From Thermoanaerobaculia bacterium (GTDB taxonomy: Bacteria; Acidobacteriota; Thermoanaerobaculia; Multivoradales; UBA5704), in assembly GCA_035266085.1 (NCBI GenBank), contig DATFNZ010000012.1:2061-66060 (forward strand): 64,000 nucleotides of DNA, in the 5' to 3' direction. The position numbers were made by a program, and so were the translations under genes. Below, piece by piece: positions 49,784-56,091 of this stretch; the first letter of the stretch is position 1, and every line of letters begins with the position of its first letter. The notes under the pieces are model-generated. The model was not told the DNA's origin. It saw nothing but the letters and a program-made list of their open reading frames with translations, and searched no databases.

Positions 49784-51667
49784 ATGGTCTACGACGACTT
49801 CGTCATCCAGATCCTCCGCGGGCGGGGGAACAGCCATGAAGTCCGGGTCGAGTCGTCCGCTGGCCGCGGTGACGGTCACTTCGAGACTCCGGCCAACCTT
49901 CAAACCGGTCCCTGGGAAACCCTGTCGCTGGGAGGCCGTGATTTCCGCCGGGCTCCTGCCGTTTCCGCTCCTCCTCCGCCCACGGCCCGTGAGATCGGAG
50001 ACGGCTTGTTCCAGGCCCTCTTCACCGGCAAGGTCCTCACTCTGTTCCACGAGAGCCTCGGGAAGGCCGATGCTTCCGGCAAGGGGCTCCGCATCCGGCT
50101 GCGGATCGATCCAGGGCTCGGCCGGGCCCTGGCTCTCCCCTGGGAGCTCCTTCACCGCGCGGATACCGACGATTTCCTCGGCATGAGCCGGAGTACCCCG
50201 CTCGTGCGGTCTTTGGACGTCCACCGGCCTCCCGCGCCTGCACGGATCGGGGAGCGGTTGCGGATCCTGGCTGTCGCCTCGGCCCCTCGCGGCAACCCGT
50301 CTCTGGATCTGGACCGTGAACGCGCCAATCTGAGGTCGTCCTGGAAAGGCCGGCGAGACGCGGAGATCGTCTTTCTCGACAAACCCGGACGCGAGGAGCT
50401 GCGGTTGGCCCTGCTCCAAGGGGACTTCCACGTGCTGCACTTCATGGGGCACGGGACGTTCGCGGAAGGAGCCGGCGAGGGTGCTCTCCTCTTCGAGGCT
50501 CCGGATGGCGGACCGCTGCCGGTCACGGGTGGCGAGCTCGCGGTCGAGCTGAAGGGCTTCCACAGCTTGCGGCTGGTCGTCCTCAATGCCTGCCAGACGG
50601 CTCGGATGGCCGAGGACGAGGGGCTCCATCCTTTCGCCGGAGTCGCTTCCGCCTTGGTCCAAGGGGGCGTTCCTGCCGTGGTGGCCATGCGGTCCCGGAT
50701 CTCCGACCGGGCCGCCGTCGCGTTCAGCCAGACCTTCTACGAGCAACTGGCGGCCGGGGATCCCGTGGATGCGGCGATCTCGGAAGGCCGCCTGGCCATC
50801 TACCGTAAAGAAGGGGAGAACGGGGGATGGAACCTTCCTATCCTTTTTCTGCTGGGCGAGAGCGGTGAGCTCTTCCGGAGCCGCGGCCTGCGTCCTCTTG
50901 CCAAGGCCGCGGCCGTATCGATCAGCCTCACGCTGCTGGTCCTGTTCTCCGGTTTTTCCTTTCGAAAGAATTACCAGGCCCTGAAAGCCAATAACGAGGG
51001 GGCCGCGCTCGCCTCGCGGGGGCTGGACGACCAGGCACGCGCCGCTTTCCTGGACGCTCTGAGGCTGGACCCCGGCTACGCGGCCGCCCATGCCAATCTG
51101 GCTGGCGTTGAGGAACGGCAGGGTAACTACGCCGCCGCCGCGAGCGAAGCGGAAGCCGCGGCCGAAGCCGCTCCCCACCAGGCCTCCTACCTCTATAACC
51201 TCGGCAGGCTGCAGGCCCGGATGGGGCGGGTCCCGGAGGCTCTGGGCAGCCTTCAACGGGCGATCGATCTGGCTCCGTGCCACGGCGAAGCCTTCAACGA
51301 GATGGGCAACCTGTATCTCGATCTCGACCGGCCCGGCGACGCGCGCCGGGTCATCGAGTCGGGACTGCGGTGCACCCCGCCGCTGCCTTACCTCTACAAG
51401 AACCTCGGCCGTGCGGCCCTGGCCCAAGGCAGCGCCGGCGAAGCCGTTCAGGCTCTCGAGAAGGCCTTTCACCTTTACGGCCAGGCGGGCCTGCGGGACA
51501 TCGAGGAGCCCACCTATTGGCTCGCCGAGGCCTACGCCCGGGAAGGCCGGCGTGATCTTGCCTGCGAGAAGCTCCAGGACTTCGAGCGTCTCACCGGCGG
51601 CATCAGCCCGCTGGGAGCCCAGGCGCGGCGAAGGGCTCAACAAGAGCGGTGCGAAGGTGTCCTCTAA
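49784..51667 (+). CDS. CHAT-domain protein with one TM segment and C-terminal TPR repeats
   Basis: Track ORF 49568..51667 trimmed to ATG 49784. The N-terminus FVIQILRGRGNSHEVRVESSAGRGDGHFETP is typical of bacterial CHAT proteins. The dyad context is FHVLHFMGHGTF ... RLVVLNACQTA. The TM segment is AAAVSISLTLLVLFSGFSF, followed by about 5 TPRs. Confidence 0.85.
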   Translation: MVYDDFVIQILRGRGNSHEVRVESSAGRGDGHFETPANLQTGPWETLSLGGRDFRRAPAVSAPPPPTAREIGDGLFQALFTGKVLTLFHESLGKADASGKGLRIRLRIDPGLGRALALPWELLHRADTDDFLGMSRSTPLVRSLDVHRPPAPARIGERLRILAVASAPRGNPSLDLDRERANLRSSWKGRRDAEIVFLDKPGREELRLALLQGDFHVLHFMGHGTFAEGAGEGALLFEAPDGGPLPVTGGELAVELKGFHSLRLVVLNACQTARMAEDEGLHPFAGVASALVQGGVPAVVAMRSRISDRAAVAFSQTFYEQLAAGDPVDAAISEGRLAIYRKEGENGGWNLPILFLLGESGELFRSRGLRPLAKAAAVSISLTLLVLFSGFSFRKNYQALKANNEGAALASRGLDDQARAAFLDALRLDPGYAAAHANLAGVEERQGNYAAAASEAEAAAEAAPHQASYLYNLGRLQARMGRVPEALGSLQRAIDLAPCHGEAFNEMGNLYLDLDRPGDARRVIESGLRCTPPLPYLYKNLGRAALAQGSAGEAVQALEKAFHLYGQAGLRDIEEPTYWLAEAYAREGRRDLACEKLQDFERLTGGISPLGAQARRRAQQERCEGVL

Positions 51668-51673
51668 GAAGGA

Positions 51674-55800: not shown

Positions 55801-56091
55801 GGCCGAGGGCGAGTCGTGATGACGGCAAGCGACATCAATGAGGTGGCTCAGGAGAAAGGAGATCTACGGCAGGGCGTGTTTACTCACTTCCTTCTTGAGG
55901 GTTTGAAGGGCAATGCGGACAAGCCTCCGTTTGGAAATACGGACGGCGCGATCAGCGTCGACGAGGTGTATGCCTACACGTCCCGGAAAGTTCGGGAGAC
56001 TACGAAGAATCTGCAGAATCCACAGAAGTTCGGCCATGTCTCCGGAGAGTTGCTGATCGGAAGAGTTCCAGAGAGCCCTCATGGCCCATGA
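52870..56091 (+). CDS. large lipoprotein: N-terminal unknown domain, ~4 CARDB/Ig-like repeats, C-terminal peptidase C14 (caspase) domain
   Basis: Lipobox is LCLGCS. The repeated pattern is G(E/D)...(L/F).V.N.G.G.A..V. The caspase His/Cys context is IVFIYFAGHGA ... VIIILDSCFSGAAGG. GC is visibly lower than in the upstream genes. Confidence 0.85.
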   Translation: MTLPKVRFWIATILCLSMLCLGCSTALARKGEEQDLRIVLVAPQYLPTPTENICCLSDGSKLKIQSNLEWIIDHTEELLSKRFKSVKVIYRSDPRGTYDVLANISVNGAFIGDPGQAVDKGLTWMAKIRLSFEDTSGVKLGTIEAASTSEAVKYREDVTYTKKEHRGVAFFGITYVGQVRVINDIMTKVEEGLDSSPLSIELLKLAGRKVGPSNLEIEVGFDDSRGELPNRELDRAESAEIFASVRNKGPGTAYGVMLSVVGSLGIDVEKPKALGNIPPGGLRRAGISVKSAYEIKTPEAVFLVEAREVRGYDAPRVNLIVPLAKSELPKLLFSEISFNDSISPGQGDGDGKPSNGETLEAKFFIRNLGAGDAGKVTATFEARTTGVEVIRSSVGLGTIPAGEARQGTLLFRLPPVFASNKIDLRFKAEDGRGDKFARSEVERSWDVTIRRPQVLLDYRIFDGNSPESSGNRDGVLSNGEVAELELTTMNLGQVISKGVHVKMTSPSSGLVFSATQVEIGDLPPGSVGAPRRMTLSVPRTFASERIVLNLETIQRDFPVYARQLVLPVRILNTDLRLSASGFSSLQQGERRRLTVLLENHGSLRAEGVGLEIQANWPGLDVLSASKEMVGTIEPGALAKMIQVDLYARPGAKIGAAAMTITVHQADFAPLVRSIDLPIVDRPPVQAGVEPGPPPVSSISLGVVTRPVIFFRNYTTGQIVTDDRILLNLEVQDAKGLSWIEVEKDGQSKTPEKVLSEPNRELGVVVTRYRVPVSLSPGKNLVQVVAVNQDGVKSEATLSLTRAVDQQEIWAAVIGVSRYEDSGIKALSFADSDAEAFRRYLVNDLGVPESHISMLINEGATRQQIIRTLGDRLRSQAGPDDIVFIYFAGHGANEPDRRSNDGSSKYLLPFDADKSSYNSTALSMEELERQFDRVGAERVIIILDSCFSGAAGGRTIFDSAYSQRGPLSSDFLLQIAESGRGRVVMTASDINEVAQEKGDLRQGVFTHFLLEGLKGNADKPPFGNTDGAISVDEVYAYTSRKVRETTKNLQNPQKFGHVSGELLIGRVPESPHGP

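Follow-up and report, generated by a model that had tools for sequence, protein, structure and literature searches.

Caspase-like proteases of bacteria are now central to research on immunity and programmed cell death, and nearly all of the characterised ones are cytoplasmic and driven by STAND, CRISPR or cyclic-nucleotide sensors. The founding CHAT protease, HetF, is also a component of the divisome that binds FtsI, and to our knowledge the role of its tetratricopeptide repeat (TPR) domain has not been established. In Anabaena/Nostoc, HetF comprises a CHAT domain, one transmembrane (TM) helix and periplasmic TPRs, and the CHAT domain cleaves PatU3 (PMC8406250, PMC9457339). DdvA is a periplasmic TPR-CHAT protein for which a role in initiating transmembrane signalling has been proposed (PMC11506125). 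The subject here is a three-gene operon, g1-g2-g3, in 64,000 nucleotides of contig DATFNZ010000012.1 of a Thermoanaerobaculia bacterium (this whole stretch of DNA being the window), which encodes a protein of HetF architecture (g1), a periplasmic partner protein (g2) and a secreted caspase with Ig-like repeats (g3). Across related loci, g1 and g2 form a strict pair and a conserved core; the trio itself is not a conserved unit, and its third slot is interchangeable. The locus may be a trans-envelope proteolytic signalling module, in which the g1-g2 core works with an interchangeable secreted clan-CD protease, a reading held here with about as much doubt as confidence.

In domain order and predicted topology g1 is identical to HetF, as an N-terminal CHAT domain with a His/Cys dyad is followed by a single TM helix and C-terminal TPRs. 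The best NCBIfam model for g1 is that of the cell-division protein HetF (NF045509; E = 1.6e-27, 96.2 bits, aa 71-359). However, the equivalog cut-off of this model is 1200 bits and its length is 836 positions as against 627 aa in g1, which belongs to the Acidobacteriota and not to a heterocystous cyanobacterium; on the score, g1 is not a HetF orthologue. To this are added an obligate g2 gene and an adjacent secreted clan-CD protease, which may be further differences from HetF. Each of the domains is already known, and g1 falls within the HetF architectural class. An earlier note on this DNA, made from the sequence alone, had found no match to a described system, which was too strong in view of the HetF architecture and the DdvA precedent. 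An obligate g2 partner, a swappable secreted clan-CD slot and a TIR-headed variant were, for their part, not found described in the literature searched.

With DdvA the locus shares an envelope-located combination of CHAT and TPR and a periplasmic signal that is proposed to cross the inner membrane by proteolysis. The TPR-CHAT proteins that occupy the third slot in relatives resemble the periplasmic part of DdvA, and loci of the L007 type (L numbers designate related loci) add genes for an extracytoplasmic function (ECF) sigma factor and a zf-HC2 anti-sigma factor. For example, in L007 (793-5200; also in L014 and L017) three adjacent genes code for the sigma factor, the anti-sigma factor and a TPR-CHAT protein of 959 aa, which gives the look of a ‘split DdvA’. 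In contrast to DdvA, g1 has the inverted orientation (CHAT inside, TPR outside, as predicted) and the order CHAT-TM-TPR instead of TPR-CHAT, it lacks the zinc-binding anti-sigma domain, and the operon of the window is not adjoined by a gene for a sigma factor. DdvA consists of one polypeptide and has nothing like g2 as a partner.

The g2 protein has the layout of MtxA of Magnetospirillum (PDB 4z29), a 313-aa protein of unknown function that is encoded with signal-transduction genes (PMC4439547): a signal peptide, an N-terminal beta region, a bacterial Ig-like domain and a TPR domain. The likeness is at the level of the fold, as a sequence-family link is undetectable, and MtxA shows no association with genes for CHAT proteins or caspases. 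The g3 protein resembles prokaryotic C14 caspase homologues, or orthocaspases, in its C-terminal C14 domain with a conserved His/Cys dyad (PMC7159879). The best NCBIfam model for this domain, ‘caspase, EACC1-associated type’, scores 108 bits, which is under its cut-off of 140 bits, and neither the operon nor its flanks revealed a gene for an EACC1, Pepco or gasdermin substrate when the neighbours were scanned with NCBIfam and Pfam. Moreover, g3 is secreted and its caspase stands behind Ig-like domains, whereas those EACC1-associated modules that have been characterised are found in the cytoplasm, as fusions to STAND/Avs sensors (preprint 10.1101/2025.11.14.688446).

Pairs of secreted FecR-domain proteins and CHASE2 sensor kinases, as in the BiofilmReg operon of Burkholderia, likewise place the gene of a soluble periplasmic partner beside that of a membrane-spanning signalling protein (PMC5192318). 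In one relative (L005/L009), an N-terminally extended g2 and a CHASE2 membrane protein stand together at the syntenic position. Unlike these pairs, g1-g2 would have a protease and not a kinase as output. A FecR-like domain was considered for g2 and dropped, with no Pfam FecR match at E<=1 and no FecR structure among the top 50 Foldseek matches listed.

Architecture of the three proteins

The three open reading frames (ORFs) are co-directional in a window of high guanine-plus-cytosine (GC) content (0.667 overall). Their tight packing, as first described, was verified at the borders: the gap between g1 and g2 is 6 nt, and g2 and g3 share a 4-nt ATGA stop/start overlap. The mechanical ORF of g1 begins at TTG 49568. 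However, the homologues begin at the equivalent of ATG 49784, with an N-terminus of the form M-x-Y-(D/E)-D-F in which M1 is invariant and Y3 nearly so, and the TTG start would overlap the upstream alcohol dehydrogenase (ADH) gene, which stops at 49727; ATG 49784 is therefore supported as the start. The genes around the operon are an unknown gene and those of a methyltransferase, the ADH and a GT2 protein.

The CHAT domain of g1 matches Pfam PF12770 (clan CD) with 111.1 bits against a cut-off of 24 (E = 8.7e-32), many TPR families of Pfam match at aa ~400-600, and a hydropathy peak at aa 369-387 overlaps the single hydrophobic helix, in line with the CHAT domain, one TM helix and TPRs of the earlier note. 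The catalytic dyad, H223 in HFMGHG and C270 in LNACQT, is invariant in 18 homologues, and the pair C594 and C623 is invariant in the homologue alignment. The CHAT domain is predicted to be cytoplasmic and the TPR domain periplasmic, since g1 lacks a signal peptide, its TPR domain holds the invariant Cys pair, natural fusions run on into g2 without a further TM segment, and a TIR domain takes the N-terminal place in L006. The full-length homologues of g1 number more than 120 (41-74% identity), and all the taxon-named ones are from Thermoanaerobaculia. The N-terminal CHAT subtype of g1 is shared by a large set of proteins (L121-L180) from Acidobacteriota, Chloroflexota, Actinomycetota and others, of which g1 is one branch. 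Most of these have, as the g1-like proteins do, at least one hydrophobic, TM-like segment after the CHAT domain, followed by varied, unrelated C-terminal regions, and the set could represent receptor-like CHAT proteases with diverse ectodomains. Sequence searches of the PDB with g1, the TPR-CHAT proteins and the caspase domain of g3 returned generic TPR proteins and one weak match only, to the uncharacterised Geobacter protein GSU0716 (3bij; E = 9e-4).

The g2 protein consists of a signal peptide (aa 1-~26), a beta domain (30-125), an Ig-like domain (150-252) and four TPR-like helix pairs (255-397). Pfam gives weak TPR matches only, and no Pfam or NCBIfam family covers the protein. Its AlphaFold2 (AF2) model, made with 23 sequences, has two beta domains and eight helices (mean predicted local distance difference test score, pLDDT, 82; predicted template-modelling score, pTM, 0.81), which agrees with the beta-rich region and the TPR-like repeats noticed earlier behind the signal peptide. 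The best Foldseek match is the Big+TPR domain of MtxA (E = 3e-6, TMt 0.68, ~180 columns). Cys is invariant at four positions (C85, C106, C200 and C210). A word-indexed search found 29 relatives of g2, of which the two with taxon names are from Thermoanaerobaculia; at E<=1e-30, exhaustive searching by profile yielded 191 representative clusters, and the cluster look-up added only Thermoanaerobaculia names. For the wider taxonomy, a single-protein scan with the fusion protein P0192 gave irrelevant TPR matches only, and the diverse g2 alignment has no conserved stretch usable for scanning.

The g3 protein is built of a signal peptide (aa 1-23), an N-terminal domain (~35-210), five beta-sandwich domains (215-801) and the C14 caspase domain (808-1062). 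Pfam Peptidase_C14 matches with 57.5 bits against a cut-off of 21.4 (E = 2e-15) and CARDB with E = 8.8e-5, and the AF2 model (pLDDT 75) has four Ig-like domains and a fifth beta-sandwich before the caspase domain, as was largely foreseen from the letters. H889 and C945 are invariant in 10 homologues. The nine homologues of the full-length type are 33-38% identical in BLASTP. The earlier note had called g3 a lipoprotein. The signal peptide is clear, but lipoprotein status was not confirmed: the N-terminal L-C-L-G-C-S is non-canonical against the lipobox [LVI][ASTVI][GAS]C, with Cys at -3 and Leu at -2, a signal-peptidase-I site of the AxA type (ALA|R) follows the C-L-G-C, and the homologues are without the Cys and have plain signal peptides. 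The N-terminal domain is modelled at a pLDDT of only ~50-76. A CsgG-like or other known fold was sought for it and not retained, as Pfam gave no match and Foldseek was swamped by Ig arrays, the whole g3 model returning Ig-array matches only. The Ig-like repeats of the family (window 53545-55270, g3 aa 226-800) hold the invariant acidic motifs PNGxLDAGE, GDGDGxPSNGETLE and GNRDGxxxNGE, which could be metal-binding (Ca2+) sites. The inner membrane is thus predicted to separate the two clan-CD proteases, with the CHAT domain of g1 on its cytoplasmic side and the caspase of g3 beyond it, and with the TPR modules in the periplasm; the earlier note had likewise placed the two on different sides or layers of the envelope.

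The conserved g1-g2 pair

The neighbourhoods of the genes were read in metagenome contigs and in species-representative genomes with g2 as the anchor, and were annotated by tblastn and purpose-built hidden Markov models. In the genomes, full-length g1 has g2 directly downstream at all 19 evaluable loci, which come from Thermoanaerobaculia, Holophagales and unclassified Acidobacteriota metagenome-assembled genomes (MAGs). Similarly, g2 comes after g1 at every g1-containing metagenome locus read, with a gap of ~1.1 kb in L008. The pair has also been joined into single polypeptides of the form CHAT-TM-TPR-g2 in several independent clusters (P0157, P0161, P0187, P0192 and P0291), in which a linker takes the place of the g2 signal peptide and no extra TM helix is present. 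In another cluster (P0169) one chain holds a signal peptide, g2 and TPR-CHAT. Such Rosetta-stone fusions strongly argue that g2 acts together with the TPR domain of g1, and in the compartment of the third-slot protease. Conserved adjacency and natural fusions among the relatives show that the arrangement in the window is not accidental.

The pair may itself be altered. In L006 (1496-8827) g1 is replaced by a protein with a TIR domain, about three hydrophobic (TM) segments and a homologous TPR module (41% identity). In L005 (390-3776; the same in L009) a 365-aa CHASE2 membrane protein replaces g1, g2 bears a ~260-aa beta-rich N-terminal extension and the TPR-CHAT gene is absent; this locus is syntenic with L001 and L181, with DUF433, pseudouridine synthase, MacB, PAP2 and amidohydrolase genes downstream. 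Second copies were also seen, namely a decayed, inverted copy with fragments of both genes in L125 (6109-7713, minus strand) and an intact g2 beside the functional module in L134 (12965-14206, minus strand), which suggests duplication and turnover of the pair.

The variable third slot

The idea that the three genes are conserved together holds for g1-g2 and not for g3, which is swapped at other loci (Table 1). In the closest relatives of the window, L181 (g1 76%, g2 71% identical) and L182 (g1 67%, g2 61%), a TPR-CHAT gene follows g2, and L182 keeps a fragment of the upstream ADH gene of the window. Signal-peptide-like N-termini are clear in the third-slot TPR-CHAT proteins of L001, L004, L134 and L182. 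In the largest clade, the ~550-aa C14 proteins have a hydrophobic, signal-like N-terminus, clearest in L125, and their C14 domain matches the g3 family profile (E ~1e-50). Small proteins of 128 and 155 aa precede C14 genes in L007 and L006, the former with a lipobox-like LTAC motif in the L007-type loci; they were considered as EACC1-type substrates and set aside, having no NCBIfam or Pfam match and no equivalent in the window.

Table 1. Features of the operon (positions in the window) and gene orders at related loci
Feature or gene order	Position or loci	Strand	Basis
g1, HetF-architecture bitopic protease, 627 aa	49784..51667	+	Pfam CHAT and TPR families
g1 CHAT catalytic domain, aa 92-345, predicted cytoplasmic	50057..50818	+	Pfam; no N-terminal signal peptide
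g1 catalytic His223; Cys270	50450-50452; 50591-50593	+	alignment of homologues
g1 TM helix, aa ~376-398, AKAAAVSISLTLLVLFSGFSF	50909..50977	+	translation, hydropathy
g1 TPR domain, aa ~399-627, predicted periplasmic, conserved pair C594/C623	50978..51664	+	TPR Pfam matches
g2, periplasmic partner protein, 399 aa	51674..52873	+	signal peptide, AF2 model
g3, secreted Ig-repeat caspase, 1073 aa	52870..56091	+	Pfam, AF2 layout
g3 catalytic His889; Cys945	55534-55536; 55702-55704	+	alignment
g1-g2, then ~1000-1060-aa TPR-CHAT with signal-peptide-like N-terminus	L001, L004, L008, L013, L134, L181, L182		
Largest clade: BepA-like M48 metalloprotease, ~550-aa C14, g1, g2	13 species (L104-L115, L125)		
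One or two g3-family genes convergent with g1-g2	L020; L021 (= L119)		
ECF sigma, anti-sigma, TPR-CHAT, 128 aa, cytoplasmic C14, g1, g2, opposite-strand 361-aa CHAT, M48	L007, L014, L017		
C25-like (gingipain family), TIR-TM-TPR, g2, 155 aa, C14-TIR, secreted C14-Lcl_C, CsgG-like lipoprotein	L006		
No protease gene adjoining g1-g2	L003/L102, L124		

In composition, g3 stands apart from its neighbours. Its GC content is 0.53 and its third-position GC (GC3) 0.56, as against a GC3 of 0.79 in g1, 0.82 in g2 and 0.93 in the downstream glycosyltransferase gene; at other loci the genes of the g3 family have about the GC content of their surroundings. Given this foreign composition and the TPR-CHAT genes of the nearest relatives, g3 was probably acquired recently by horizontal transfer and displaced a secreted TPR-CHAT gene, so that one clan-CD protease was swapped for another, like for like. 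In L181 (6259-9402), L182 (11188-14250) and L001 (11258-14425) the third-slot TPR-CHAT genes also have a lower GC content (0.55-0.61) than their g1 and g2 neighbours (0.64-0.67), a hint that it is the third slot in which the module generally turns over fast.

The exchange of CHAT for TIR on one TPR-g2 chassis in L006 makes a role in cell death or defence possible. In an anti-phage or abortive-infection system, a periplasmic assembly of TPR domain, g2 and protease would sense phage or envelope damage and fire a lethal cytoplasmic CHAT, or TIR in the relative. The turnover and foreign composition of the third component would agree with such a role, as would the occurrence of two paralogous modules in one and the same MAG (L106 with L119, and L008 with L009), the resemblance of the g3 caspase domain to the EACC1-associated type used in defence (preprint 10.1101/2025.11.14.688446), and the island-like character of the window at 38 to 47 kb with its PIN-like gene. 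PADLOC gave matches to its SAVED_CHAT, BovA and ‘caspase’ models, but at the domain level only. EACC1, gasdermin, STAND, SAVED and Cas genes are lacking: no STAND, TIR or CRISPR genes were found to adjoin the operon by Pfam, NCBIfam and PADLOC, as first noted, and Cas7-11/CRISPR, SAVED, gasdermin and STAND NTPase were absent among the operon flanks and 10 large ORFs sampled elsewhere in the window. Likewise, in precomputed Pfam annotation the flanks of the relatives are mostly of the housekeeping type (MatE, PALP, pseudouridine synthase, MacB, PAP2, amidohydrolases, ABC transporters), with a few sigma/anti-sigma and other protease genes and no recognised defence genes, and the chromosomal position is syntenic in several genomes (L001, L005, L181). 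A defence role is regarded as unlikely.

Such a neighbourhood, being chromosomal, syntenic and housekeeping-like, would suit a complex for envelope biogenesis, quality control or division. Envelope and surface proteins would there be matured or degraded by periplasmic proteases (C14, TPR-CHAT, BepA-like M48) under the organisation of g1-g2, and the cytoplasmic CHAT domain would couple this to division, in likeness to HetF. The HetF architecture of g1, the BepA-like M48 gene kept upstream in the largest clade, the CsgG-like lipoprotein genes near the module in L006 and L012, and the glycosyltransferase genes directly downstream of the operon in the window would all be in keeping with it. This housekeeping explanation nevertheless appears rather improbable, because a TIR domain in place of CHAT is hardly to be expected of a housekeeping protease, the third partner varies and has been exchanged by horizontal transfer, copies are paralogous in some genomes and decayed in L125, and the 96 bits scored against the HetF model mean that orthology is lacking.

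Upstream of the operon, the window at ~38000-47500 is island-like, with a GC content of 0.50-0.63 between flanks of 0.70-0.77, and holds secreted paralogues, a PIN-like gene and a protein with fn3 domains (38113-39387). The paralogues, of 587 and 610 aa (42807-44570 and 44718-46550, both on the minus strand), are near-identical over their C-terminal ~120 aa, and their IHDWERVEI motif recalls the GHRHDWE motif of NPP1/NLP cytolysins; a third secreted protein of 301 aa lies at 46762-47667 (plus strand), and none of the three has a Pfam or NCBIfam match. The third CHAT gene that the earlier note had placed 8 kb upstream of the operon was not confirmed. The ORF in question (40656-41732, minus strand, 358 aa, GC 0.51) contains the motifs HFECHG and LGCNAGG, but Pfam does not detect a CHAT domain in it at E<=1, its colinear matches to a g1 profile are only weak, its one PDB match is at chance level (E = 0.17), and tblastn does not connect it with the 361-aa CHAT protein of L007. 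It overlaps by 47 nt another ORF of the minus strand (41686-42225, 179 aa), for which Pfam gives chance-level matches only, to PIN-TPR-GreABC (E = 0.13) and DUF3368 (E = 0.14).

Proposed mechanism and its meaning

In the proposed signalling model, g1 would be a bitopic inner-membrane transducer of the HetF type, with a caspase-like CHAT output inside and a TPR ectodomain in the periplasm, and g2 would be a dedicated soluble co-receptor or regulator that binds the TPR domain there. An envelope or periplasmic event would activate the secreted protease of the third slot, which would serve as the input or processing enzyme and would cleave or remodel g2 or the periplasmic part of g1. The resulting change in the oligomeric or conformational state of g1 would switch on the cytoplasmic CHAT domain, which would then cleave one or more specific cytoplasmic targets, as HetF does PatU3. 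The trans-envelope module of the earlier note survives here in its general sense, as the genes are linked and the dyads conserved, but not as an exact trio.

Several observations weigh against this model, or against the place of g3 in it. Proteins of the g3 type occur in Nitrospirota, Desulfobacterota, Rokubacteria and others, and none of ~70 such loci has g1 or g2 nearby; even in Thermoanaerobaculia/Acidobacteriota, six of the nine g3-family loci (L018, L019, L022, L023, L050 and L066) are without the pair. As g3-type proteins occur without g1-g2 at most of the loci examined, g3 could act independently of them. Conversely, some g1-g2 pairs have no adjoining protease gene at all (Table 1). The topology assigned to g1 comes from sequence rules and natural fusions, information could flow inside-out instead, and no candidate gene for a cytoplasmic substrate is visible in the operon. 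The promoter scan (3 against 1.1 ± 1.1 in shuffled sequence) and the terminator scan (7 against 7.3 ± 2.8) were uninformative on the operon structure.

The wide occurrence of the Ig-repeat/C14 family without the pair (in a genome scan, a relative is encoded by 562 of 599 stretches that matched the pattern), together with the foreign composition of g3 and the distance of its closest relative (38% identity), could also mean that g3 is an unrelated passenger. The real unit would then be g1-g2, whose original TPR-CHAT gene has been lost, and g3, a secreted Ig-repeat caspase gained by horizontal transfer that might scavenge nutrients or act as a surface protease, would have landed after g2. Little credence is given to this explanation. 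Translational coupling is implied by the 4 nt (ATGA) that g3 shares with g2, genes of the g3 family also adjoin g1-g2 at L020 and L021/L119, where the arrangement is convergent and independent of that in the window, and in 13 species a C14 gene that matches the family profile lies immediately upstream of g1. The gene displaced was likewise that of a secreted clan-CD protease. Because of this like-for-like swap, and because C14 proteins of the same subfamily are linked to g1-g2 in two other arrangements, g3 is considered to be functionally connected and no passenger, although its tie to the pair is less certain than that between g1 and g2.

A further extension of the signalling model would make g1-type proteins transmembrane receptor-effectors, in which the TPR ectodomain, the g2 co-receptor and a periplasmic activating protease would sense a cue in the periplasm or envelope and fire a cytoplasmic effector of death or immunity (CHAT in most members, TIR in some), the third-slot protease acting like the extracellular cascade upstream of Toll. 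This extension is a speculative one and probably does not hold. If true, it would provide a prokaryotic counterpart, in layout, of death-receptor-to-caspase and Toll-like-receptor-to-TIR signalling.

The comparison of loci defines a conserved chassis, made of a HetF-type transmembrane CHAT protein and its periplasmic partner, which recruits swappable secreted clan-CD proteases and whose head can be exchanged for TIR. Since the natural fusions mark the interacting parts, testable partner pairs are available. If the signalling model is true, the chassis would offer a tractable route to the periplasmic regulation of HetF-type proteins and would be the second case, after DdvA, of caspase-like proteolytic signalling across the bacterial envelope; it may also prove to be a prokaryotic analogue of receptor-coupled caspase or TIR signalling.

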